Assembly (NCBI GenBank): GCA_944377365.1
Contig: CALWEQ010000010.1
Span: forward strand, 4,304 to 68,303
DNA length: 64,000 bases
Direction: 5' to 3'
Source of the DNA: an uncultured Clostridia bacterium
Lineage (GTDB): Bacteria; Bacillota; Clostridia; Christensenellales; UBA1242
The position numbers and the translations under genes were made by a program. Shown here one piece after another: positions 10,504 through 36,449 of the stretch (the stretch's first letter is position 1; every line of letters begins with the position of its first letter). The notes under the pieces are model-generated. The model made no database searches. It was not told the DNA's origin and saw only the letters and a program-made list of their open reading frames with translations.

Positions 10504-10579
10504 TGGAGCTGGTGATGGGACTCGGACCCATGACCTTTCGATTACGAATCGAATGCACTACCAACTGTGCTACACCAGC
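10504..10579 (-). tRNA. tRNA-Thr (CGU)
   Basis: The reverse complement folds as a cloverleaf: GCTGGTG..GCAC/GTGC..TTCGA-TTCGTAA-TCGAA..ATGGG-TCCGAGT-CCCAT-CACCAGC-T-CCA. CCA is encoded. Confidence 0.9.
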
Positions 10580-10805: not shown

Positions 10806-12473
10806 TTGTTTAATATTGCGATTGATGGAACGACAAGTAGCGGTAAAACCACAATAGCCAAAATTTTAGCAAAAAAGTTAAATATGAAGGTGTTTGATAC
10901 TGGTGCATTATATCGTGCTATTGCTTGTGGATATCAACGAACTGGAAAGTCAATTAATGAAAAATCGCTTAAAAAATTTATTGCGTCTTTGAATATGAAA
11001 GTCGATTTTGTAAAAGACGAGCAACATGTTTATGTAAACGGAATTGATGAAACAGACAATTTAAGAAAAGAAGAAATAAGCGATTTAAGTTCCCTAATTT
11101 CACCTTACAAATTTGTTAGAAATTTTGTGTTAAGCATGCAACGAGATTTTGCTTCAAAAAATGAATGTGTTATGGAAGGGCGAGATATAACTAGCGAAGT
11201 TTTGCCTAATGCTGATATTAAATTTTTCTTTGATGCCGATGTTACTGTTAGGGCAAAGAGAAGATATGAACAGCAAAAGAACAAGCCTTTCCCACAAACT
11301 TTTGAAAAGGTCTTTGAAAATTTAAAATTAAGAGATATGCGAGATAAAAACAGGGAATACGGCAAGCTTAAAATCGTTGAAGATGCTGTTTTTATTGACT
11401 CTACTGAAAAAACAATTGACGAAATGCTAGACTTTTGTTATGACGTAGTTAAAAAAGAATTTGAGGCAAGAAAGAAATGTTTGGTTACGGGTTGTACTGG
11501 TCATATCGGGAATGTTTTGATAAGGAATTTGTTAGAGAACAGATATAAGGTTACTGCACTTGTTCTTCCTAGCGAGGATTTGACACCGATAAAAGATTTA
11601 GACGTAAAGATAATAGAAGGTGACGTAACCGATCGTGATTTCATCTTCAAAATTATAAAAAAAGATTATATTGTTTTTCATTTGGCAGGAATTATTGATA
11701 TAGGTAGTATTCCTACACAGAAAGTTTTTAAAGTAAACATTGACGGGACTAAAAATGTTGTTGATGCGTGCATTAAGAATAAGGCGAAAAAACTTTTATA
11801 CACTAGCACTGTGAACATTATTGATCCAATTGATGGAAGAGTTTTAAAAGAGCCAAAAACATTTAACACAAAAATTATAAAAGGATCATATGCGGTGTCA
11901 AAATATCAGGCAACGCAGTATATTTTAGACAAGTGTAAAGACTCAAATTTGAATGCAGTGATTTTGTATCCTTCCGCTGTTGTTGGTCCATTTGACTTTA
12001 AAGTTTCTGAGGTTGGACAAGTTATATTGGATTTCATGAATAGAAAACTGTATGGTTATGTAAGAGGAGGTTATAATTTTGTCGACGTGAGAGATGTGGC
12101 TGAAGCATTAAGACTCGCATCAAAAAAAGGAATTGACGGTGAGAGCTACATAATAAGTGGCCAAACCATGACATTTAAAACACTTTTACAAACAATAAAC
12201 CGTGTTTTAAACAGAAAATATATGCCACCAAAATTTGCCATATGGTTTGTAAAATTGTTTGCAAAGGTTTCAACTGCTTTTTACAAAATGCGTGGCAAAA
12301 AACCTGTTTTAAGTGATTACTCGATAACTGCATTTACAAGAAATAGCAATTTTTCGCATAAAAAGGCGACAAAACAATTGGGATACAATCCTAGATCGGT
12401 CATAGTTTCAGTTGAAGATTCTGTCAATTGGTTTATAGAAAATGGTTATTGTAAAACTATAAGGAAAAAATAA
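10806..12473 (+). CDS. cmk: Fusion protein: cytidylate kinase (N-terminal, about 225 aa) plus NAD-dependent epimerase/dehydratase-type SDR (C-terminal, about 330 aa)
   Basis: Cmk part: IAIDGTTSSGKTT P-loop and DTGALYRA. SDR part: VTGCTGHIGNVL Rossmann motif and YAVSK (YxxxK). Single uninterrupted ORF. The TTG at 10806 follows an AGAGGTG RBS; the ORF track starts at 10791. Confidence 0.8.
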   Translation: MFNIAIDGTTSSGKTTIAKILAKKLNMKVFDTGALYRAIACGYQRTGKSINEKSLKKFIASLNMKVDFVKDEQHVYVNGIDETDNLRKEEISDLSSLISPYKFVRNFVLSMQRDFASKNECVMEGRDITSEVLPNADIKFFFDADVTVRAKRRYEQQKNKPFPQTFEKVFENLKLRDMRDKNREYGKLKIVEDAVFIDSTEKTIDEMLDFCYDVVKKEFEARKKCLVTGCTGHIGNVLIRNLLENRYKVTALVLPSEDLTPIKDLDVKIIEGDVTDRDFIFKIIKKDYIVFHLAGIIDIGSIPTQKVFKVNIDGTKNVVDACIKNKAKKLLYTSTVNIIDPIDGRVLKEPKTFNTKIIKGSYAVSKYQATQYILDKCKDSNLNAVILYPSAVVGPFDFKVSEVGQVILDFMNRKLYGYVRGGYNFVDVRDVAEALRLASKKGIDGESYIISGQTMTFKTLLQTINRVLNRKYMPPKFAIWFVKLFAKVSTAFYKMRGKKPVLSDYSITAFTRNSNFSHKKATKQLGYNPRSVIVSVEDSVNWFIENGYCKTIRKK

Positions 12474-12509
12474 TAATGTTAGTATTTTATTAAATTTTTA
12501 AAGGAACAC

Positions 12510-13160
12510 ATGATGAGATATTTTAATGTTGAGAATAATAAAATCACATATAATGCTATCGCTCAAAATTATGCAAATATTGCAATACGTGAAATTGCCC
12601 CAAAGTATTTTATAGACAATTTTTTAAATTCGTTGAATGGAAAGGATATTTTGGATGTTTGTTGTGGAACAGGGCAAATTTCAAAATATTTAGCGAGCGA
12701 AGGTTTTAATGTTTTGGGAATTGACAACAGCAAAAATATGATAAACCTCGCAAAGCAATTAGTAAAAAATTGCAAATTTAAGTTGGCAGATGCATTGGAA
12801 TATAAATCAGATTACAAGTATGATGGTGTGCTTGCACACGAGTGTTTGTCAAATTTCACATATTCACAAGCACGAAAATTGATCGAAAATATTTTTTATG
12901 CCTTAAAGGACGATGGAAAAGCACTGATATCTTTTTCGGAGGGCGAAGGGGAGCGTTTTGAACGATTAGATCCAGAATTACCTCTTAGGCTTTTCATAAA
13001 AAAATATACGGTTCGAGAAGTCAATGAAATTTTAGACGGATATTTTAAGATATCAGGAATGTGGGTAGTAAATGAAATGGAAAAGGAAAGACAAGTCGGC
13101 AGAAAATTTTATTTGTTGTTAACAAAAGCACCTTCATTTGAGCAAAATCCTATTGATTAG
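12510..13160 (+). CDS. Class I SAM-dependent methyltransferase
   Basis: Motif I ILDVCCGTGQIS; 216 aa. Confidence 0.75.
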   Translation: MMRYFNVENNKITYNAIAQNYANIAIREIAPKYFIDNFLNSLNGKDILDVCCGTGQISKYLASEGFNVLGIDNSKNMINLAKQLVKNCKFKLADALEYKSDYKYDGVLAHECLSNFTYSQARKLIENIFYALKDDGKALISFSEGEGERFERLDPELPLRLFIKKYTVREVNEILDGYFKISGMWVVNEMEKERQVGRKFYLLLTKAPSFEQNPID

Positions 13161-13163
13161 TAA

Positions 13164-13188
13164 AACATAGCAGATTGCTATGTTTTTT
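13164..13188 (+). terminator. Rho-independent terminator of the methyltransferase gene
   Basis: Stem AACATAGCA/TGCTATGTT with loop GAT, then a T-run. Confidence 0.7.
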
Positions 13189-13222
13189 AATGTTAACATT
13201 ATCGGGATCTAACTGACAAAAC

Positions 13223-13244
13223 AAAAAAAAGACCTCGAAAGGTC
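13223..13244 (-). terminator. Rho-independent terminator (second copy) after the tRNA-Thr pseudo-copy
   Basis: Minus strand: GACCT-TTCG-AGGTC followed by 8 T. It is a near-duplicate of the terminator at 13410-13430. Confidence 0.6.
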
Positions 13245-13251
13245 AGTTTGT

Positions 13252-13290
13252 TGGAGCTGGCGATAGGAATCGAACCTACAACCTGCTGAT
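13252..13290 (-). pseudogene. Orphan copy of the 3' half of tRNA-Thr(UGU), from the anticodon-stem 3' strand through CCA
   Basis: These 39 nt are identical to 13438-13476 of the intact gene. Upstream sequence (13291 onward) diverges and no acceptor 5' strand is present. Confidence 0.7.
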
Positions 13291-13409
13291 AACGAGCTGA
13301 GAGTGGGCAAATGCTTGCAAATTAGCACATGCGAAGCGAAGTTATATTAAAAACGAAATAGTGAGTTTTTAATATTATAGTCAGCGCTGACTTGTAATCA
13401 GTCTTAAAC

Positions 13410-13430
13410 AAAAAAAGACCCCGAAAGGTC
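13410..13430 (-). terminator. Rho-independent terminator at the end of the tRNA operon
   Basis: Minus strand: GACCT-TTCG-GGGTC followed by 7 T, 7 nt after the tRNA-Thr CCA. Confidence 0.65.
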
Positions 13431-13437
13431 ATTTAAA

Positions 13438-13512
13438 TGGAGCTGGCGATAGGAATCGAACCTACAACCTGCTGATTACAAGTCAGCTGCTCTACCGTTG
13501 AGCCACGCCAGC
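13438..13512 (-). tRNA. tRNA-Thr (UGU)
   Basis: GCTGGCG-TG-GCTC..GAGC-A-GCTGA-CTTGTAA-TCAGC-AGGTT-GTAGG-TTCGATT-CCTAT-CGCCAGC-T-CCA. Confidence 0.9.
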
Positions 13513-13566
13513 ATATTGCGAATTAAGTGCCAAAGAGAAGGGGAATTTGTTGACGCTTAATCGCGT

Positions 13567-13642
13567 TGGTGCCCTAAGGTGGAATCGAACCACCGACACA
13601 AGGATTTTCAGTCCTTTGCTCTACCGACTGAGCTATCAGGGC
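13567..13642 (-). tRNA. tRNA-Phe (GAA)
   Basis: GCCCTGA-TA-GCTC-AGTCGGTA-GAGC-A-AAGGA-CTGAAAA-TCCTT-GTGTC-GGTGG-TTCGATT-CCACC-TTAGGGC-A-CCA. Confidence 0.92.
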
Positions 13643-13677
13643 ATATAAATTAGTTTTTTTCGATTCCACCTTATTTT

Positions 13678-13856
13678 GCGGTGGTGTGGAATCGAAGCAC
13701 CGACACGGCTTCGAAAATCGTGCTTGCGCTCGCTTTGCTACTCGCAAAGGCTCGGTTAACGCACGTTTTCTTCGCTTCCCAAAATGCCAAGCATTTTGAG
13801 ACACCTCTGACTCAGTCCTTTGCTCTACCGACTGAGCTATCAAGAGATAATCAAGA
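13678..13856 (-). pseudogene. tRNA-Phe-like pseudo-unit with a 105-nt hairpin-rich insertion in the anticodon
   Basis: The 5' part, TGATAGCTCAGTCGGTAGAGCAAAGGACTGA, matches tRNA-Phe through anticodon position 35. Then comes a 105-nt insert (13707-13811), then GTGTCGGTGCTTCGATTCCACA (variable region and T-arm). There is no matching acceptor 3' strand. Confidence 0.65.
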
Positions 13857-13966
13857 CTTAGGTTAATGCTTGTTTAAAATGTTTTTATGTTTGAAAAACA
13901 AGATGTGAACCCAAAATTTCCCACTTATTAAACCATATAAAAAGGGGAGATTACGACAAACCAACA

Positions 13967-14043
13967 TGGCGACTCGGATGGGACTTGAACCCACGACCTC
14001 TAGCGTGACAGGCTAGCGTTCTAACCAACTGAACTACCGAGCC
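13967..14043 (-). tRNA. tRNA-Asp (GUC)
   Basis: GGCTCGG-TA-GTTC-AGTTGGTTA-GAAC-G-CTAGC-CTGTCAC-GCTAG-AGGTC-GTGGG-TTCAAGT-CCCAT-CCGAGTC-G-CCA. Confidence 0.92.
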
Positions 14044-14075
14044 ATATGAAGTTGATTTGTCGTTCGCTTTCGCGA

Positions 14076-14160
14076 TGGTGGGAAGGGATGGATTCGAACC
14101 ATCGAAGACGTAGTCGACGGATTTACAGTCCGTTGCATTTGGCCGCTCTGCAACCTTCCC
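14076..14160 (-). tRNA. tRNA-Tyr (GUA), long variable arm
   Basis: GGGAAGG..GCAGAGCGGCCAAATGC..CGGACTGTAAATCCG..long variable arm..GATGGTTCGAATCCATC-CCTTCCC-A-CCA. Confidence 0.9.
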
Positions 14161-14202
14161 ATGTTTGCGTTCAGCCACTTTTGTTGATGAGCAGTCTTGC
14201 TC

Positions 14203-14279
14203 TGGTGGGCCTTCAGGGACTTGAACCCCGGACCGACCGGTTATGAGCCGGTTGCTCTAACCAACTGAGCTAAAGGCCC
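14203..14279 (-). tRNA. Elongator-type tRNA with CAU anticodon (tRNA-Met, or tRNA-Ile2 if C34 is lysidinylated)
   Basis: GGGCCTT-TA-GCTC-AGTTGGTTA-GAGC-A-ACCGG-CTCATAA-CCGGT-CGGTC-CGGGG-TTCAAGT-CCCTG-AAGGCCC-A-CCA. It is not initiator-like: the 1:72 pair is intact and the anticodon stem has no GGG/CCC. The 5' half resembles what I recall of Bacillus tRNA-Ile2. Confidence 0.85.
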
Positions 14280-14664
14280 AAGAATAACTTGGATTTTTGT
14301 TTTTTTTCTACCGGTCGGTCCGGGGACGCGACTCGGTTATATCACAACAATTCTAACGAATAGTTGTGATGCGGTTTTCACAAAAATGTAATTGCAAGCA
14401 AACATTTTTGTTTTAACCTAAGAGCTCGGTTGCTCAATGGAGCTGAGCTAAAGGCCCAAGAATAACTTGGATTTTTGTTTTCTTCTGCCGGTCGGTCCGG
14501 GAGACGCGACTCGGTTATATCACAACAATTCTAGCGAAGAGTTGTGATGCGGTTTTCACAAAAATGTTATTGCAAGCAAACATTTTTGTTTTAACCTAAG
14601 AGCTCGGTTGCTCTTGTGAGCTGAGCCCAAGACCCAAGATTAACTTGGATTTTGATTTTTCTTC
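14280..14664 (-). repeat. Tandem repeat of 178-bp tRNA(CAU)-derived units (14280-14457, 14458-14635, plus a partial third copy of about 29 bp)
   Basis: The two full units are roughly 90 percent identical by eye. Each starts (minus sense) with GGGCCTTTAGCTCAG (unit 1) or a degenerate version (unit 2) and carries the same upstream spacer, AATCCAAGTTATTCTT, as the real tRNA. Confidence 0.85.
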
Positions 14665-14676
14665 ATTTATAGAAGA

Positions 14677-14752
14677 TGGTCGGGGTGGAGAGGCTCGAAC
14701 TCCCGACCCCATGGTCCCAAACCACGTGCGCTACCAACTGCGCTACACCCCG
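14677..14752 (-). tRNA. tRNA-Pro (UGG)
   Basis: CGGGGTG-TA-GCGC-AGTTGGTA-GCGC-A-CGTGG-TTTGGGA-CCATG-GGGTC-GGGAG-TTCGAGC-CTCTC-CACCCCG-A-CCA. Confidence 0.9.
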
Positions 14753-14773
14753 ACGTTTTTAGGTTGCGAAATC

Positions 14774-14802
14774 ATTTTACACTAAACAAAAAACGATGTC
14801 AA
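14774..14802 (-). promoter_or_regulatory. Sigma-A-type promoter of the tRNA operon (Pro-UGG onward)
   Basis: On the minus strand: TTGACA, 17 nt, TAAAAT. It ends about 21 nt upstream of tRNA-Pro(UGG). Confidence 0.65.
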
Positions 14803-14955
14803 GAAAATTAAAACAATTTTTATAAAATAATTGTAAATTTCTATTTTTGCACTCTTTTTTTAAGAATTTTAAATTATAGAAGCTTTTTAATCTTTACTCT
14901 TGTTTCACTTTATTTTATTAAAAATTTTTATTTTTGTGAAATTTGTTAGTTTATT

Positions 14956-15031
14956 TGGTCGGCGTGGCGGGATTTGAACCCACGACCTCATGGTCCCGAA
15001 CCATGCGCGCTACCAACTGCGCTACGCGCCG
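14956..15031 (-). tRNA. tRNA-Pro (CGG)
   Basis: CGGCGCG-TA-GCGC-AGTTGGTA-GCGC-G-CATGG-TTCGGGA-CCATG-AGGTC-GTGGG-TTCAAAT-CCCGC-CACGCCG-A-CCA. Confidence 0.9.
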
Positions 15032-15039
15032 ATATACTG

Positions 15040-16452
15040 CTAATCAGTAAATACGTTTTGATCAGCATAATTTTTTATAAAATTTATTTTATTCTCCATT
15101 TGTTTTAAAGAAACAGGGAAAAAGTCAAAATAAGTTGTAGCAACATTAAAGCCAGATTTGCTTACAGGTTTTAATGTGTGGACATGGCCAAACAGATTTA
15201 TCATTTCTTTGTTGCAATCAATAGGTTTGTGTGTCAAAAATATTTCAAAATTGTCTATTTTAATTTTTAAATTTTTTTCTACTACGTCGTAAAATCCAAT
15301 AGATTTAAGTTGTTCTTTAAACTTGCTAAAACTTAATTTTTGTCTTTTCATATCTGCAACTTCATAATTTCCCAAGATTAATATAACTTTTCCGTTTAAC
15401 CTTTTTATATAATTATATTCTCCAAAGTCGCCTAGATGATAAACGACATCGTCTTTTGAAACAACGCTGTTCCATCTTTTTACTAGTTCATAATTCATTT
15501 GTTCAACATTTTCAAAAGGTACTAAATGAAATTTTATCACGCGATCAGAAGAAAAGTGAGTGTCAGAAGTAAAGAAAATGTTTTTTTGTGATTTTGTTTC
15601 TACTGATGTAATTGAATTGATAAAATCTTTCCATATGTCATAATTAGCTTCTTTTTGTAAATCAAAAATGTAATTTACTTCTTTAAATTGGTCAAGTTTT
15701 TCTTGTTCTTTTAAAAGTTCGTTGGCATTGATTTTTGTTGAGCAAAACCAATTTTTGTTTATTAAATACGCTACAGGTCCAATATCGTATATGGTGTGTA
15801 TGCCACGGTTTTGTATTTTAAAAACTGAATCATTTAATTTTCTGTAAAGATATCTTCCAAGTTTATTTTGGCATAAATGATTTTTTGCTTCGTAAATGCT
15901 TGTTACAAACTGTTTTGCTACGGTGCTTGGAAAAATTGTTAAATCGTCAACGTTTTTAATTACAACTTCAAAAGCTTTTTTGTCTTTAATGTAATTAAAA
16001 TCTGTAAATTTTTTGTGTAATAGATGTTGAGTACCTAAAAAAATTATCCTTAAGTTTTTGGATATTTCAGGCTTACTTAAAAGTGCAATGGCGACATTCG
16101 TGAGAGTTCCTAAACAAAGAATAGTAATTTTTTCTTTGCTTGCAATTTTCACTATTTCACTTGATGCGTCACTAACTTTTTGATAGTTGTTTGAAAGATA
16201 ATCAATACTCCCATTTTTTACTATATCTGTATTTTTTAATCCCATTGTTCGCATCAATCTTTTAGCTTCAAATTTTGAATCGATATTGTTGTCATGAATG
16301 GAGTTTCTTTTATAACTAGCTGTAAACGGTGAAACAGAAATGAGTTTAATATCAAACACATCTTGGCGCGAAAGTGCATAGGCGAGGGCAAACACGTCAT
16401 CAACTTCATTTGACACATCACTATCAATAATAAGTTTCATTTTTTTCTTCAT
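15040..16452 (-). CDS. Fusion protein: inosine/uridine-preferring nucleoside hydrolase domain (N-terminal) plus calcineurin-like metallophosphoesterase domain (C-terminal)
   Basis: N-terminal IIDSDVSNEVDDVFAL is the DxDxxxDD nucleoside hydrolase fingerprint. The C-terminal roughly 170 aa carry SDTHF, LGDFG, GNYE, THKP and GHVH, the metallophosphoesterase motif series. Confidence 0.7.
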   Translation of the reverse strand: MKKKMKLIIDSDVSNEVDDVFALAYALSRQDVFDIKLISVSPFTASYKRNSIHDNNIDSKFEAKRLMRTMGLKNTDIVKNGSIDYLSNNYQKVSDASSEIVKIASKEKITILCLGTLTNVAIALLSKPEISKNLRIIFLGTQHLLHKKFTDFNYIKDKKAFEVVIKNVDDLTIFPSTVAKQFVTSIYEAKNHLCQNKLGRYLYRKLNDSVFKIQNRGIHTIYDIGPVAYLINKNWFCSTKINANELLKEQEKLDQFKEVNYIFDLQKEANYDIWKDFINSITSVETKSQKNIFFTSDTHFSSDRVIKFHLVPFENVEQMNYELVKRWNSVVSKDDVVYHLGDFGEYNYIKRLNGKVILILGNYEVADMKRQKLSFSKFKEQLKSIGFYDVVEKNLKIKIDNFEIFLTHKPIDCNKEMINLFGHVHTLKPVSKSGFNVATTYFDFFPVSLKQMENKINFIKNYADQNVFTD

Positions 16453-16554
16453 ACAAAAATATTAACAGTTCGCCATTTTTTTGTCAAATATATAAATAAA
16501 TATGTTGGAGAAAATATATAAATATGTTAGACTAATTTAACCTTGGAGGTAAAA

Positions 16555-17376
16555 ATGATAAAACTTATTGTAGATTCTACTGCTTATATTCCAAAAGAAT
16601 TTATTGAAGAAAATGATATTACAGTTGTTCCACTGCACGTGCTATATATGGACAAAGAATTTGAAGAAGGTTTGCCAGGAAGTTATGACGAATTTTTTGA
16701 AAGTTTTACAAAAACAAAATTGTTTCCAAAAACATCACAGCCATCTCCGGAGTCTTTTATAAAGGCATATGACAAAGTGATAGATGAAAAAAACGAGGCT
16801 ATAGTTTTCACAATTTCCGCATCACTTTCTGGGACATATTCTGTGGCAAATTTAGCAAGAGAATCTTGTAAAAATCCTGAAAAAATAACCGTTATTGATT
16901 CTATGAGCACGGGGCAAAATATTTGGGGATATTGCATGGAAGTCATAGAAAAAGCAAACGAAGGATGGAATAGAGAGCAAATAGTAAAGTATATTTCAGC
17001 ATTGCAAGTCAACAGTCAAATATGTTTTGTTCCTGACAGTTTAGAGTATCTTAAAAAAGGTGGAAGAATTGGCAGGGTTAGTGCTACGATTGGGTCTTTG
17101 CTTCAAATTAAACCAATTTTGACTTTTAAACAAGGAACGCTCCTTTGTGCAAAAAAGATTTTTGGAATGGGAAAGGCAATTTCTGATTTGATTGCTATGA
17201 TTCCCGAAAAAACCAAGAGGCTTTTTGCTATTCATATAGCCAACACAAAATTTTTTGATGTTCTATTGCAAAAAATGAAATCGGCATTTCCAAAAACCAA
17301 AATTTACGAAGGTGAGCTAGGGCCGGTCGTAGCAGCCCATATAGGACCTGCTGTAGGGATTTGTTATATATGTTAA
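16555..17376 (+). CDS. DegV family fatty-acid-binding protein
   Basis: MIKLIVDSTAYIPKEF...TSQPSP...GGRIGR is typical of DegV. The ATG at 16555 follows a GGAGG RBS. Confidence 0.85.
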   Translation: MIKLIVDSTAYIPKEFIEENDITVVPLHVLYMDKEFEEGLPGSYDEFFESFTKTKLFPKTSQPSPESFIKAYDKVIDEKNEAIVFTISASLSGTYSVANLARESCKNPEKITVIDSMSTGQNIWGYCMEVIEKANEGWNREQIVKYISALQVNSQICFVPDSLEYLKKGGRIGRVSATIGSLLQIKPILTFKQGTLLCAKKIFGMGKAISDLIAMIPEKTKRLFAIHIANTKFFDVLLQKMKSAFPKTKIYEGELGPVVAAHIGPAVGICYIC

Positions 17377-18077
17377 GAAAATGTGCATTTATTACGGGCG
17401 CTTCTGGTGATATAGGAAGATGTGTAGCTCTTGCTCTTTCCGATGAGGGCTATGATCTTTTTTTATGTGGAAACAAAAACAAAATAGACACAAGTTTAAT
17501 TAAGACAAATGTTGTAGAACTTTATTTTGATCAATCAAAGCCCGATCAAGTGAGAGCGATTTTTAAAAAATTGCAAGAAAAAAACATAAAACTTGACCTA
17601 GTTGTTTGCAATGCTGGCATGGCAGAAGATGAAAAGATGTTGATTGACAAGAATGATGAAGAAATTGACAACATTATAAAGGTAAATTTAAACGGAACCA
17701 TTTATTGCAATAAATACTCAATTCCACTTTTAAAAAAAGGTTCTAGCATAATCAACATATCATCTTTTTTAGGGGTATATGGAGGCAGTTGTGAAGCAAC
17801 ATATTCGGCGTCCAAAGCAGGTGTTGTTGGTTTAACAAAAGCTTTAGCAAAAGAATTGGCTCCGCTTCACATACGCGTAAACTCAATTAGCCCAGGTTTG
17901 ATCGACACAAAAATGAATTCTTGCTTTAACGATGAAGAAAAATCTCGTTTGATAGAAGCAACACCATTAAACAGAATTGGCACTTGTGAGGATGTTGCAA
18001 AAGCAGTTTTATATTTAGCAAACAGCGATTTTGTAACAGGGGAAAATTTGATTGTCAGTGGAGGACTGATTATCTAA
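17370..18077 (+). CDS. SDR family oxidoreductase (FabG-like 3-oxoacyl reductase)
   Basis: ITGASGDIGR cofactor motif, NAG, and catalytic YSASK. Confidence 0.8.
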   Translation: MLRKCAFITGASGDIGRCVALALSDEGYDLFLCGNKNKIDTSLIKTNVVELYFDQSKPDQVRAIFKKLQEKNIKLDLVVCNAGMAEDEKMLIDKNDEEIDNIIKVNLNGTIYCNKYSIPLLKKGSSIINISSFLGVYGGSCEATYSASKAGVVGLTKALAKELAPLHIRVNSISPGLIDTKMNSCFNDEEKSRLIEATPLNRIGTCEDVAKAVLYLANSDFVTGENLIVSGGLII

Positions 18078-18179
18078 AAGAAACAAAATACTAATATGGC
18101 AAAACAAGCTTTTTTTCTACAAAAAGGCTTGTTTTTTTTATGTATAAATAAATTATACTGAAACGTATAGGAGGAGAAA

Positions 18180-18488
18180 ATGAAGGTTAAATCAAGAATA
18201 TACAACGGCACACTCTATTTGCTTCTGTGTGGCGAATTGGACGAACATTCTTCGTCTTATACGCGTGAAGAAATGGACAAAGCTTTTGGAAGTGGAATAT
18301 TTAAACAAATAATAATAGATTTGTCCGAACTAGATTTTATGGATTCCACTGGCATTGGGGTGCTTATTGGAAGATATAAGAAGATGAAGGATCGAAAAAT
18401 TCCAATTTATATTTGCAACCCTTCATCTCATGCTGAAAGAATTTTTAAAATGACTGGGCTATATGATTTAATGCCCAAAATAATTTAG
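18180..18488 (+). CDS. spoIIAA: Anti-sigma-F factor antagonist SpoIIAA (STAS domain)
   Basis: 102 aa. MDSTGIGVLIG sits at the position of the phosphorylatable-Ser motif. It is followed by spoIIAB and sigF. Confidence 0.9.
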   Translation: MKVKSRIYNGTLYLLLCGELDEHSSSYTREEMDKAFGSGIFKQIIIDLSELDFMDSTGIGVLIGRYKKMKDRKIPIYICNPSSHAERIFKMTGLYDLMPKII

Positions 18489-18498
18489 GAGGTTGATC

Positions 18499-18960
18499 GT
18501 GAAACAAGACAATTTTATGGAGATTGAATTTAAAGCTGATTCTATTAATGAGAGTTTTGCAAGAGTTTGTGTTGCTAGCTTTTGTCTTCCGCTTAATCCG
18601 TCTCTTGAAGAAATCAGTGACATTAAAACCGCTGTTTCTGAAGCTGTTACAAACGCCATTGTACACGCATATCCAAAAGGAAATGGTGTTGTGAAGATGA
18701 GGGTAGAGTTAAACAACAACGAAGTTAAAATAACAATTTCGGACAATGGCATAGGGATAAAAGATTTTAAAAAAGCGCGAGAGCCTTTTTATACTACAAA
18801 GCCTGACGAAGAACGCAGTGGAATGGGATTTTCAGTCATGGAAACATTTATGGATGATGTTCAGCTGTTTAAAAATGGTGATAAGGGTTTGCGTGTTGTG
18901 ATGAAAAAGATATGTAGTAGCGCGACTTTGAAAGAAGGCACCTATGCTGGATGCAAATGA
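18499..18960 (+). CDS. spoIIAB: Anti-sigma-F factor SpoIIAB (serine kinase)
   Basis: NESFARVCVASF...EAVTNAIVHAY (N-box) and DNGIGI (G1-box). The GTG at 18499 is 6 nt after a GGAGG RBS. Confidence 0.9.
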   Translation: MKQDNFMEIEFKADSINESFARVCVASFCLPLNPSLEEISDIKTAVSEAVTNAIVHAYPKGNGVVKMRVELNNNEVKITISDNGIGIKDFKKAREPFYTTKPDEERSGMGFSVMETFMDDVQLFKNGDKGLRVVMKKICSSATLKEGTYAGCK

Positions 18961-19663
18961 AATAAAACTCCTAGTTGCGAAAGCACAGAAAGGCGATGAG
19001 GATGCAAAAGATGAGCTTATACAACAAAATTCACCGTTGATTAAAAGCATTATCAAAAGATTTTATGGCAAAGGCCTTGAGTATGATGATTTATATCAAT
19101 TGGGTTGTCTAGGCTTTGTTAAGGCAATAAAAAATTTTAATGCAGAATTTAATGTAAAGTTTTCTACTTATGTAGTGCCGATGGTAATAGGAGAAATAAA
19201 GAGATTTATGCGTGATGATGGAGCAATTAAAGTTTCTCGAGCTATAAAAACATTAAATTTAAAAATAAACAAATTTGTTGAAAAATATTATGCTGAAAAC
19301 AAAGCGTCGCCAACTGTTGAAAACATAGCGAAACATTTTGGAGTAGAAGAAGGGGAAATTGTGATGGCTATGGATTCGGCAAAGATGCCATTGTCATTAT
19401 ATTCGCCAGCTGAAAATTCGCAGAGTGGGGCATTGATTATTGATGGAGTCGATTCCCTTGCAACTGATGAAAATTTAATGGATAAAATTGCAATTCGTGA
19501 AATGCTTTCGTCGTTGTCGAAACGAGATAGGGCGATAATACTAATGAGGTATTTTTATGACAAAACACAAAGTGAAATCGCTCAAAAGTTAAAAATATCA
19601 CAAGTCCAAGTTTCACGCTTAGAAAATCGAATATTAAGCAGTTTGAAAAAAAAGCTGTCATGA
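18944..19663 (+). CDS. sigF: Sporulation sigma factor SigF
   Basis: Sigma-70 regions 2-4 (DLYQLGCLGFVKAIKNF; TQSEIAQKLKISQVQVSRLE). Third gene of the spoIIA operon. Confidence 0.9.
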   Translation: MLDANEIKLLVAKAQKGDEDAKDELIQQNSPLIKSIIKRFYGKGLEYDDLYQLGCLGFVKAIKNFNAEFNVKFSTYVVPMVIGEIKRFMRDDGAIKVSRAIKTLNLKINKFVEKYYAENKASPTVENIAKHFGVEEGEIVMAMDSAKMPLSLYSPAENSQSGALIIDGVDSLATDENLMDKIAIREMLSSLSKRDRAIILMRYFYDKTQSEIAQKLKISQVQVSRLENRILSSLKKKLS

Positions 19664-34024: not shown

Positions 34025-35239
34025 ATGAAAAGACGAGCGTTATGGGTTTCCATGCTTTGTGTGACTATAATAATATTACTTTTTGTTAATGTCAGATTTT
34101 CTGAAATTTATTCGCTACCTGATGGTTTTTTGGCAACTCGTGAAGAGGTTGAAGCTTCCAATCAAAATGGACTGTTTGGAAATTTTATATCTGCTTCGAT
34201 GGAGCAAACTTCTCAATCTGTTTCAACTGATAAAACAACCGAAGGTTACATAACATTTAAGTTGTTTGGATTTATTCCTATTAGAAAAGTGGTTGTTGTT
34301 TGTGCAGAGGAAGAAGAAGTGTTTGTGGGGGGAGTCCCAATAGGAATAAGCATAAGTGCTAAAGGCGCAATAGTCATAAATGAAAAAATGGTAGATTCTG
34401 TTGACGGATTGGTTGAAACAGAAAAAAGTGAAAAATTTAAAGAGGGAGACATAATCGTAAAAATAAATAATATTGATGTAAAATCATTAGACGAACTTAG
34501 CGAATATGTTGAGGAAAGTGATGACGAATTGTTTGAAATTTCTTTTTTAAGAAAAAATAAATTGCGTACCGCCAAAATTCGTGGTGTAAAGGATAAAACC
34601 ACAGGTAAATACAAATTAGGATTGTGGGTAAAAGATGATGTTTCTGGCATCGGAACATTAACATATGTTAACAAGCAAACGCAAAAGTTTGGTGCGCTTG
34701 GTCATGCAATAACCGAATGCGAAAACTGTATTCCTGTTGGTGAAGGAAGTGTACATTTATGTAAATTAATTGGAATAGAAAAAGGAGAAATTAACGATCC
34801 TGGTCAGCTAAGGTGTATGTTTTCTAAAGGTGACAAAACAAAAGGTGAGCTAGAAAAAAACACACGTTATGGTGTGTTTGGGAAATTGACCGATTGTGAA
34901 AATTTAATAGATGAAAATCTCTCGTCAAAGATAGGGGGAAGATTGTCTGTTAGTCCTGGTAAAGCGAGCATAATTTCCAGTATAAGTGGAATAAGAGAAG
35001 AATATGAAATTGAAATAATCAAAGCCTCTTATCAATCAAAAGCAGATGACAAAAGCATAGTTTTTAGAGTTAAAGACAAAAGATTGATTGAACTGACGGG
35101 AGGCATAGTGCAAGGCATGAGTGGATCACCAATATTGCAAAACGGTAAATTAGTTGGCGCGGTAACCCATGTTTTTACAGCTGATCCAACAAAGGGATAT
35201 GGAATATATAGTGATTGGATGGTTTTAAACGAAAACTAA
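34025..35239 (+). CDS. spoIVB: SpoIVB peptidase (S55 serine peptidase with PDZ domain)
   Basis: N-terminal TM segment, PDZ (GDIIVKINNIDV), catalytic region GIGTLTYV...ALGHAI...GIVQGMSGSPI. Conserved argR-recN-spoIVB order. Confidence 0.9.
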   Translation: MKRRALWVSMLCVTIIILLFVNVRFSEIYSLPDGFLATREEVEASNQNGLFGNFISASMEQTSQSVSTDKTTEGYITFKLFGFIPIRKVVVVCAEEEEVFVGGVPIGISISAKGAIVINEKMVDSVDGLVETEKSEKFKEGDIIVKINNIDVKSLDELSEYVEESDDELFEISFLRKNKLRTAKIRGVKDKTTGKYKLGLWVKDDVSGIGTLTYVNKQTQKFGALGHAITECENCIPVGEGSVHLCKLIGIEKGEINDPGQLRCMFSKGDKTKGELEKNTRYGVFGKLTDCENLIDENLSSKIGGRLSVSPGKASIISSISGIREEYEIEIIKASYQSKADDKSIVFRVKDKRLIELTGGIVQGMSGSPILQNGKLVGAVTHVFTADPTKGYGIYSDWMVLNEN

Positions 35240-36276
35240 TTTTTTGATGTGTTGATTTTAACTTTGTTTGCCACCGATTTTCGCATATCTTCGCTTATTG
35301 CAGCATAGTGCTTTTTGGTTGTGTTGACATCTTTATGGCCAAGCACGTCTGCGACAATGTAAATGTCGTTTGTTTCTCTATATAAATTTGTTCCAAAAGT
35401 ACTTCTTAATTTATGCGGAGAAATCTTTTTTAGGGGAGTCGCTTCTTTTGCGAATTTTTTTACTAAATCCTCGACTGCTCTAACTGAAATTCTCTTTTTT
35501 TGCAATGAAATAAACATTGCGTTTTCATCAGGATCTAAACCCAAAGTTGCTCTCTTTTTTAGCCATTTTTTTAAGGCTTCTGCAACTTCATTCGAAAAAT
35601 ATAAAACGGTTTGATTGCCACCTTTTCTGGTGACCTTAAATGCATTTTGTGAAAAATCGAAATCCTCCAAATTTAATCCAACGCATTCAGAAATACGTAT
35701 GCCAGTGCCTAAAAATAATGTTACTATTGCATTGTCTCGTTCGAAAGTGTTTTGATTGTAGGCCTTTTGGCGCTTTGAAAATGTGTTGTTCGATGAAAGT
35801 GCATCCATCATCCTAGAGATCTCATCTTGCTCCAATCTTATTATTCCTTTGCTGTGAAGTTTTGGCATTGGAACTTTACTTGCGACGTTTGATGAAATTA
35901 GGTCGTGGTCAAATAGGTATTTGAAAAAGCTTCTAATTGAGGCAAGTTTTCTAGCTTTTCCGCGTTCACCATTTTTGTTAACTTTTCCTTCAGCTTCGTA
36001 AAAGGAAAGATAAGACAAGTATTGCTCAATTTGTGTTGATTTTAGTTTGTCTAAGTCTTGTAAAGTTATTTCAGACTTATTTTTGTGTAAAATTTCCTGT
36101 AAAAAGTCAAAAAATATATTTAAATCCATTGCATAATTTCTTCTTGTCAATGATGAAGAATTGTTTTCAATACCAATAAAAAAATCGTAAACAAAGTCTG
36201 GCAAATTGGCCGTTATTGAACCTATCTTTTTTTGATTTGAAATATCACGTTTTTCAAAATAGCTAAGTTTTTTCAT
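35236..36276 (-). CDS. Tyrosine-type site-specific recombinase (XerC/XerD-like integrase family)
   Basis: C-terminal catalytic residues: GTGIRISEC (Arg), HKLRSTFGT (HxxR), LGHKDVNTTKKHY (His/Tyr). N-terminal SAM-like core-binding domain. Confidence 0.8.
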   Translation of the reverse strand: MKKLSYFEKRDISNQKKIGSITANLPDFVYDFFIGIENNSSSLTRRNYAMDLNIFFDFLQEILHKNKSEITLQDLDKLKSTQIEQYLSYLSFYEAEGKVNKNGERGKARKLASIRSFFKYLFDHDLISSNVASKVPMPKLHSKGIIRLEQDEISRMMDALSSNNTFSKRQKAYNQNTFERDNAIVTLFLGTGIRISECVGLNLEDFDFSQNAFKVTRKGGNQTVLYFSNEVAEALKKWLKKRATLGLDPDENAMFISLQKKRISVRAVEDLVKKFAKEATPLKKISPHKLRSTFGTNLYRETNDIYIVADVLGHKDVNTTKKHYAAISEDMRKSVANKVKINTSKN

Positions 36277-36449
36277 AAGCAAATTATACTATATTTAAAA
36301 AAATAATGCAAAAGATTTTGTATACAATATGTTGTGTGTTTTATCTCATAACAGTCACTATAAATACAAAACAATATGAAAAACTTATTATTTTATTTGA
36401 CTTTACATAATCGAATATTATAAACTTAACTAACAAAGGAGCATTGATA

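Follow-up and report, generated by a model that had tools for sequence, protein, structure and literature searches.

tRNA-derived tandem units with structurally constrained hairpins in a tRNA operon of an uncultured Clostridia bacterium

A 64,000-nt stretch from an uncultured, gut-type Clostridia bacterium (GenBank assembly GCA_944377365.1, contig CALWEQ010000010.1, positions 4,304–68,303), hereafter the window, carries a minus-strand tRNA operon in which tandem 178-nt units built from pieces of the adjacent tRNA-Ile2 gene are lodged between two tRNA genes. We describe these units, to which we give the family name E1, together with sister elements in the same operon and related loci from other assemblies (L002, L003, L007, L008, L009, and L019). 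The element is real, rare, and confined to a narrow clade, and its three hairpins are shown to evolve under structural constraint. Our preferred reading, held with about even confidence, is that the units are a lineage-specific, tRNA-derived spacer RNA that is constrained and processed, with or without a role in cis.

Results

The tRNA Operon and Its Repeat Array

The operon comprises seven tRNA genes, and a repeat region (14676–14280) separates tRNA-Pro(UGG) from tRNA-Ile2(CAU). Read along the minus strand, the order is tRNA-Pro(CGG), a promoter-like site, tRNA-Pro(UGG), the repeats, tRNA-Ile2(CAU), tRNA-Tyr, tRNA-Asp, tRNA-Phe, tRNA-Thr(UGU), and a terminator; the neighboring genes are housekeeping genes. 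The features around the array are as follows.

15031–14956, minus strand: tRNA-Pro(CGG), from tRNA calling
14774–14802, minus strand: sigma-70-type promoter-like site 5′ of tRNA-Pro(UGG) (TTGACA, 17-nt spacer, TAAAAT)
14677–14752, minus strand: tRNA-Pro(UGG), the gene upstream of the array (ARAGORN; Rfam tRNA, 63 bits)
14636–14676, minus strand: original 41-nt leader of the CAU tRNA, split from the tRNA by the units; homologous to the leader in L009 and to the 3′ end of each unit
14458–14635, minus strand: unit A, 178 nt; its pseudo-5′ part (GGGTCTTGGGCTCAG...) is the more decayed of the two; E1 covariance model, 172.7 bits over 14458–14607
14280–14457, minus strand: unit B, 178 nt, directly adjoining the tRNA; E1 covariance model, 185.7 bits over 14280–14429
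14203–14279, minus strand: tRNA-Ile2(CAU), parent and neighbor of the units (ARAGORN; Rfam tRNA, 71.7 bits)

Tandem Repeats Finder identifies a single array (14265–14664; period 178, 2.2 copies, 92% matches), and a separate repeat search recovers the same register with a spacing of 178. Both bear out an earlier note on this DNA, made without database searches, which had described tandem 178-bp units at 14280–14457 and 14458–14635 beside the CAU tRNA. That note had also counted 14636–14664 as a partial unit; the segment is actually part of the original leader listed above. Its placement of the units in a tRNA operon downstream of a strong promoter-like site holds, with 11 of 12 positions of the site matching consensus. 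The site (14802–14774) is kept in L002, L003, L007, and L009, and we regard it as the probable start of the unit-containing transcript. The best Escherichia coli matches to the CAU tRNA are annotated tRNA-Ile (80.5% identity over 77 nt), and because it is closest to these genes we identify it as the lysidine-dependent tRNA-Ile2, whose CAU anticodon reads Ile once modified with lysidine.

Anatomy and Fold of the Units

Each unit opens with a copy of the tRNA 5′ part and ends in a copy of the tRNA leader. Unit B is composed of the following parts.

14422–14457, minus strand: pseudo-tRNA 5′ part, tRNA bases 1–35 with the D-loop replaced and one extra A (blast map, fold)
14373–14418, minus strand: hairpin P1, 17 positions per arm with an internal loop; apical loop UUGCUUGCAA nearly invariant (inverted-repeat search, fold)
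14341–14370, minus strand: hairpin P2, 8-bp stem ATCACAAC/GTTGTGAT with a variable loop (fold and alignment fold)
14310–14337, minus strand: hairpin P3, a degenerate forward copy of tRNA bases 38–53 paired with its own inverted copy (fold and alignment fold)
14310–14325, minus strand: antisense arm, 16/16 reverse complement of real tRNA bases 39–54, lying 68 nt upstream of its target
14280–14309, minus strand: A-rich 30-nt leader copy, ending at the tRNA RNase P site (direct-repeat search)

Bases 1–15 of unit B are identical to the tRNA, and the pseudo-5′ part folds as a new nested hairpin; it is missing from the L002 and L007 units and hence lies outside the conserved core. The 81-nt insert (14421–14341) is placed exactly between the anticodon wobble base C34 and the following A, where the earlier note had located it. 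Both hairpins that the note drew in the insert are present, the first of them (14418–14373) being longer than it had stated. Immediately 3′ of the insert, ATAACCG(A)GTCG(C)GTCC repeats the following 16 tRNA bases in degenerate form. The sequence then continues with CCCCGGACCGACCGGT, the perfect antisense arm that corresponds to the inverted tRNA copy already noticed after the insert; unit A carries a second copy of this arm (14488–14501, 14/14 match).

Unit B folds into the three hairpins P1–P3 at −52.1 kcal/mol (z = −5.06 vs. shuffles). ARAGORN and the Rfam tRNA model call no tRNA within 14280–14664, their only calls being eight real tRNAs, in agreement with the proposal that the units derive from the adjacent CAU tRNA and are unable to be tRNAs themselves. 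Among Rfam families, introns and other RNA classes included, none matches the units at E ≤ 1. Read on the plus strand, the unit leaders (14278–14292, 14456–14470, and 14634–14648) form a weak hairpin resembling a terminator, with a T run after it (CCAAGAATAACTTGG ATTTTTGTTT), which could stop antisense transcription from entering the operon.

Distribution Across Related Loci

The same locus was recovered from other assemblies with a neighboring 470-residue nucleoside-hydrolase/phosphoesterase protein as anchor. E1 is found in every clade member seen—the window and four other independent assemblies—with two units in the window, one in L002, two in L003, one in L007, and one in L008, where the contig end cuts it. 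Absence from all relatives, which the earlier note had linked to plain decaying duplications, is thereby contradicted. At L009, whose neighboring protein is 66% identical, the same seven tRNAs stand in the same order with short spacers and no elements, an arrangement that we take to be the ancestral state. Relatives with a 48%-identical neighboring protein have lost the operon at this position, and the contigs of a second homologue at 65–66% identity (P0007) end at the tRNA-Pro genes.

Broader searches returned the same narrow distribution. The E1 covariance model, built from these copies, matched only those copies in 118 kb of sequence, and an exact 27-mer from the unit had no match in genome contigs. 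Across the genome contigs of 185,579 species genomes, a gapped P1/P2 pattern occurred only in the two related species of metagenome-assembled genomes, as did a general pattern of a T arm followed by its inverted copy. A single scan of Joint Genome Institute (JGI) metagenomes for a P3-region pattern gave only a chance match (L006) within high-GC coding sequence, and viral, phage, and plasmid collections held no further unit copies.

Structural Constraint on the Hairpins

Sequence identity in the element exceeds that of nearby spacers. The E1 core is 97% identical between the window and L002 and 79% identical between the window and L007; for E3, a sister element described below, the corresponding values are 93% and 80%. 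Unconstrained spacers, our neutral reference, are 61–67% identical: 67% for the Pro-Pro spacer (window vs. L002), and 61% and 65% for the spacer between tRNA-Asp and E3 (window vs. L002 and L007, respectively). Flanking coding DNA of the window is 81% identical to both loci.

The distribution of changes within the unit follows its predicted pairing. The two E1 lineages differ at 8 of 66 paired columns vs. 16 of 47 unpaired columns (Fisher P = 0.009). Four of those eight differences in paired columns are accounted for by two compensatory pairs in P1, the kind of change that the earlier note had proposed to seek with a covariance model, and three one-sided stem changes each give G:U on the sense strand. 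Within P2, the window and L003 differ at 0 of 16 stem columns and at 9 of 18 loop columns. RNAalifold recovers P1, P2, and P3 independently. Together, these comparisons show that the three hairpins evolve under structural constraint; the pattern is the one that would be expected of a hairpin structure under selection.

Sister Elements in the Same Operon

E1 does not stand alone in this operon, a point that the earlier note had missed: comparable elements lie at tRNA-Phe and tRNA-Thr. Mapping each tRNA against its surroundings with blast, together with an exact inverted-match search, resolved five elements (E1–E5) across the operons of the window and its relatives. Besides E1, they are as follows.

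13643–13849, minus strand: E3, upstream of tRNA-Phe; tRNA-Phe bases 5–35, a ~105-nt hairpin body, forward bases 44–64, and a 15/15 antisense of bases 54–68
13224–13437, minus strand: E5, downstream of tRNA-Thr(UGU); a terminator, a 16/16 antisense of tRNA-Thr bases 26–41, a ~95-nt body, a copy of bases 37–75, and a second terminator
L007 and L003 only: E2, downstream of tRNA-Ile2; antisense arm, body, and tRNA 3′ end with CCA
L007 and L019 only: E4, downstream of tRNA-Phe; antisense arm, body, and tRNA 3′ end with CCA

E3 has the same architecture as E1, with its hairpin-rich insert in the anticodon loop and its antisense arm (13659–13673) 69 nt from the target. It is kept in L002 and L007. 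Copy number varies in the sister elements as well, L019 having two E3 and two E4 units. The antisense arm of E5 (13386–13401) copies the anticodon arm and lies 70 nt from its target, and the ~95-nt body holds an A/U-rich palindrome; L007 has two E5 units. In the fold of E2 and E4 from L007, a helix joins the antisense arm to the copied tRNA 3′ end and leaves the CCA tail free. These RtT-like elements (the E. coli RtT repeats are compared below), which do not occur in the window, lie at L007 7425–7774 and 8344–8419 and at L003 8361–8462; in L007 they form two 175-nt GC-rich units after tRNA-Ile2 and one 76-nt unit after tRNA-Phe.

Two regularities run through the set. Breakpoints fall in the anticodon loop or the T loop: after base 35 in E1 and E3, at base 37 in E5, and at bases 57–59 in E2 and E4. 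The gap between arm and target is 68–71 nt in all 11 instances of E1, E3, and E5 (window, L002, L007, and L019), and it holds despite three different target regions and arms on either side of the gene. The element bodies themselves showed no detectable kinship: pairwise local alignments against shuffles gave matches of 9–18 nt at z = 2.6–3.7, over many comparisons. A shared heptamer, AACCGAG, considered as a sign of common body origin, was set aside; it is not kept in the L007 copy of E3.

Comparison With Known Systems

Scrambled repeats of tRNA pieces have been known in E. coli tRNA operons since about 1980, and to our knowledge their origin and purpose have never been explained. At the E. 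coli tyrT locus, used as a positive control, the RtT family (RF00391) matches four units at 133–137 bits. In our blast map, every tyrT unit has an inverted copy of tRNA-Tyr bases 68–77, a forward segment resembling a T arm, a body rich in GC, and the final 19 tRNA nucleotides with CCA; 67 nt separate the inverted arm from its target in the full tRNA. In the Rfam RtT consensus, the arm pairs with the 3′ copy and so closes the RNA. PMC3318445 (citing Bosl and Kersten 1991) and a 2024 preprint (bioRxiv 10.1101/2024.07.17.603846) describe one unit as processed from the tRNA transcript into a stable rtT RNA (gene rttR), and the preprint calls the mode of action of that RNA still unknown.

These tandem 178-bp tyrT units have the same ingredients, so the earlier note's statement that no described element class has this layout fails. 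Both systems place tandem units of ~178 bp in a tRNA operon, adjoining a tRNA gene, and both combine in each unit a partial tRNA copy, a short inverted tRNA piece, and a structured body. The arm-target distance of 67 nt in E. coli compares with 68–71 nt in the window and its relatives, and the closing helix and CCA tail of RtT recur in E2 and E4 of L007. Unlike RtT, the window units lie upstream of the tRNA and include its 5′ part and leader rather than its 3′ end with CCA. They hold tRNA bases 1–35 and about 38–53, with no 3′ end to close the RNA, and their inverted piece makes a local hairpin; the hosts also belong to different phyla. RF00391 has no match at E ≤ 1 in window 12800–15300 or L007 5400–9200. 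On these comparisons, the window units are the same kind of element as RtT in a mirror version, and they are not homologous to it.

Other known systems share single traits with the units. Spacers of tRNA transcripts can yield functional RNAs, such as 3′ETS-leuZ of E. coli, and an E1 spacer RNA would likewise be co-transcribed with tRNAs and freed by tRNA processing enzymes. Those RNAs are short, unrepeated, and not tRNA-derived; a trans-acting role for E1 is hypothetical. Group I introns occur in bacterial tRNA anticodon loops, as in Azoarcus tRNA-Ile(CAU) and cyanobacterial tRNA-Leu(UAA), and the units resemble them in holding foreign sequence inside the anticodon loop of a CAU tRNA-like unit; the 81-nt insert is far below group I intron size. 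We rejected this class: there is no Rfam intron match, and the T arm and acceptor 3′ strand are gone after the insert, so that, with the 3′ exon missing, splicing could not yield a tRNA.

Several further candidates were also dropped. A T-box leader lacks an Rfam T-box match, and what follows the element is a tRNA gene instead of a coding gene. A miniature inverted-repeat transposable element (MITE) or insertion-sequence derivative does not fit an insert without terminal inverted repeats or dispersed copies; the AACCGAG repeat that flanks the insert arises because the anticodon stem is palindromic. Derivation from halves of mature tRNAs by way of an RNA intermediate conflicts with copies that include unprocessed leader or terminator. 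An invertible switch was rejected by reasoning only: with just 70 bp between the 16-bp inverted repeats, the segment could not form a loop, and no recombinase consensus is common to the three repeat pairs.

Discussion

Proposed Origin and Fate of the Units

The earlier note had offered three explanations for the units. A template-switch rearrangement fits the anatomy best, since the forward piece directly precedes its own inverted copy, and a processed RNA under constraint fits the conservation. We infer the following course. A segment comprising the leader and the tRNA-Ile2 gene would have been duplicated in tandem, after which the upstream copy would have broken in the anticodon loop and taken up the 81-nt hairpin-forming insert. 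Near base 52, the copying strand may have folded back on itself and made a reverse copy of 16 of its own bases, which took the place of the T arm and the acceptor 3′ strand. Copy number would have been altered by later unequal crossing-over among the units.

The genomic setting may have contributed. Cumulative GC skew over window 1–64000 peaks near 41 kb, where genes converge, which suggests a replication terminus there. The operon and tRNA-Thr(CGU) (10504–10579) run head-on to replication, and nearly all other genes in the arm lie on the plus strand. Head-on orientation is unusual for tRNA operons in Firmicutes, and head-on transcription may favor rearrangements of this kind. The element-free L009 shares the gene order, so orientation is not the whole cause.

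As to fate, the position of the promoter at 14802 suggests that the units are transcribed with the tRNAs. They would then be freed by the RNase P cut at the tRNA-Ile2 5′ end and by trimming of the tRNA-Pro 3′ end. Co-transcription and release by tRNA processing, as the earlier note had supposed, are the fate to be expected from this arrangement. The product would be a three-hairpin spacer RNA like the rtT RNA of the E. coli tyrT operon, and it could be a tolerated, stable by-product.

A Possible Role in cis

The least certain part of the proposal concerns function. The P3 arm can pair with its local decoy or with bases 39–54 of the real tRNA, the latter pairing being the more stable; given these two alternative partners, the unit could act in cis on the folding and maturation of the downstream tRNA. 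Minimum-energy folds of unit plus tRNA reach −103.5 kcal/mol for E1 vs. −84.4 for independent folds, and −99.3 vs. −96.0 kcal/mol for E3, with a pairing probability between arm and real tRNA of at least 0.9 for both. In this energy model, a switch among decoy, antisense arm, and target that affects tRNA maturation is physically possible, and a cis role on tRNA maturation is likewise possible.

A stronger version holds that E1 and E3 are cis-acting "tRNA attenuators," each made of a decoy copy of a tRNA segment, a perfectly complementary antisense arm, and a real target inside the tRNA ~70 nt downstream. During transcription, the arm would first be captured by the decoy, forming P3; a switch of the arm to the real tRNA would preclude the cloverleaf, so that RNase P processing would be blocked or the duplex cut. 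We judge this model decidedly unlikely. If true, it would mean that the cell tunes the output of individual tRNAs inside one operon, would give the E. coli RtT repeats a function, and would make the ~70-nt spacing a functional requirement.

Points Against a Functional RNA

Several points weigh against our preferred reading of the units as a constrained and processed spacer RNA. The energy model omits tRNA tertiary structure, base modifications, and co-transcriptional folding. All carriers are metagenome-assembled genomes, and transcription and processing are read from gene position. E5 shows this DNA-level layout too, on the opposite strand with respect to its tRNA and after a terminator, a strand symmetry more readily explained by a process at the DNA level than by a shared RNA-level function. 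The antisense arms are directed at three tRNA regions (39–54, 54–68, and 26–41), which argues against one specific regulatory contact.

The evidence for constraint is also open to other accounts. The comparison involves effectively two lineages, and the covariation rests on two events. "Correction" of a quasi-palindrome by template switching could give paired changes without RNA selection. Over window 12000–19000, the operon and its elements are nearer to L002 (91% over 1 kb) than to L007, though the flanks are 81% identical to both, which suggests recombination of the operon between lineages; such recombination, anchored in the identical flanking tRNAs, could partly explain the low divergence.

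Alternative Explanations

The units could also be neutral, decaying debris left behind by duplication and template switching at a head-on tRNA operon prone to rearrangement, with no RNA or DNA function, a reading that we hold possible, if on the unlikely side. It would account for the recurrence of a forward piece followed by an inverted copy in five elements of one operon, for unstable copy number and a very narrow taxonomic range, and for arms that hit differing regions of differing tRNAs, and it suits an operon on the minus strand of a positive-GC-skew arm whose genes are nearly all on the plus strand. It sits poorly with a core that is 97% and 79% identical where nearby unconstrained spacers are at 61–67%, with changes that avoid the stems or are compensated in them, and with the retention of E1, E3, and E5 in every clade member seen while flanking coding DNA diverged to 81%; bacterial genomes normally delete useless DNA. 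The units might instead be footprints, or miniature cis-mobilizable versions, of integrative elements with a tyrosine integrase supplied in trans, to which we give a slim chance; site-specific integration into the anticodon loop or T loop of the gene would leave a short body bordered by partial tRNA duplications. Like attachment (att) sites, they set a partial direct tRNA copy beside an intact gene, and their breakpoints lie in the anticodon loop (E1, E3, E5) or T loop (E2, E4), which Williams (Nucleic Acids Research, 2002) reportedly described as the two classical sublocations at which tRNA-targeting integrases cross over. Repeated integration typically produces tandem arrays, and the window does contain a tyrosine recombinase gene (35236–36282, minus strand; 348 residues, Phage_integrase domain and N-terminal SAM-like domain). 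This gene, however, matches a chromosomal Xer-type recombinase in domain pair and size, sits near the skew-inferred terminus, and probably encodes a chromosome dimer resolvase rather than an element integrase; it lies 21 kb off, and no integrase is found within 20 kb of the operon. The units have no integrase or cargo, and their bodies measure only ~100–170 nt, are not detectably related among elements, and have no copy elsewhere in the sequence set or the public collections searched. The duplication takes in non-tRNA flanks, a 30-nt leader in E1 and a terminator in E5, which points to local tandem duplication; E1 and E3 duplicate the 5′ part of the tRNA, whereas att sites usually duplicate the 3′ part, and the extra inverted arms are not at the positions of core-type integrase sites.

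The released RNA could alternatively act in trans as a base-pairing or sponge RNA, for example through the self-complementary, invariant P1 loop UUGCUUGCAA. The apical loop of P1 hardly varies, in contrast to the freely variable loop of P2, each operon has several copies, and processed tRNA spacers with trans functions exist (3′ETS-leuZ). Sites complementary to the P1 loop are nevertheless not enriched in the 64-kb window (21 matches vs. 18 expected), there is no known partner, and the sister elements share no loop motif beyond chance; the idea appears quite improbable to us. We give very little credence to a coding role, in which each unit would specify a 22-residue hydrophobic peptide (MFACNYIFVKTASQLFVRIVVI) comparable to the annotated tpr open reading frame (ORF) of the E. 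coli tyrT repeat. A 22-codon ATG ORF is indeed present in both units (14337–14405 and 14515–14583, minus strand), yet a 4-nt difference in P2-loop length shifts the frame in L003 and L007, the stop codon is not shared, substitutions track base pairing rather than codon positions, and an AGG 11 nt upstream of the ATG makes a weak ribosome-binding site. An assembly artifact—a mis-joined or artificially expanded repeat—has next to no probability in our view. The L008 contig ends in E1 and the L003 contig in E2, so assemblers evidently struggle here, but the units differ from each other by 8%, and the same element and junctions occur in five independent assemblies from different samples, the window being joined by L002, L003, L007, and L008.

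Significance of the Locus

The locus provides a second, unrelated example of tRNA-piece repeats, in a phylum distant from that of E. coli. It adds five elements in one operon, a clean ancestral state in a relative, measurable constraint on hairpins, and a regular 68–71-nt spacing. The question it raises is whether such repeats arise as by-products when replication runs into trouble at tRNA genes or serve as a general means of regulating the maturation of single tRNAs within a shared transcript. In practical terms, arrays of this kind break short-read assemblies and can mislead tRNA and pseudogene annotation.

Further Observations in the Operon and the Window

The tRNA-Asp leader and trailer (~14050–14066 and 13950–13966; L007 7905–7918 and 8003–8016) are complementary over 13–14 nt. 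The pairing is perfect in L007, includes G:U pairs in the window, and is also found in the element-free L009, for which reason it looks like an ancestral processing stalk around tRNA-Asp.

Between both tRNA-Pro genes, three of the related loci carry an insertion of 1.3–1.7 kb (L003 6500–7830, L007 5500–7080, and L008 5500–7220) that is absent from the window, L002, and L009. It contains a 169-residue ORF without a Pfam match and internally repeated AT-rich segments. At the edge of the window, positions 6–25 on the minus strand match the conserved D-arm region of tRNA over 20 nt, probably a tRNA gene truncated by the window boundary.

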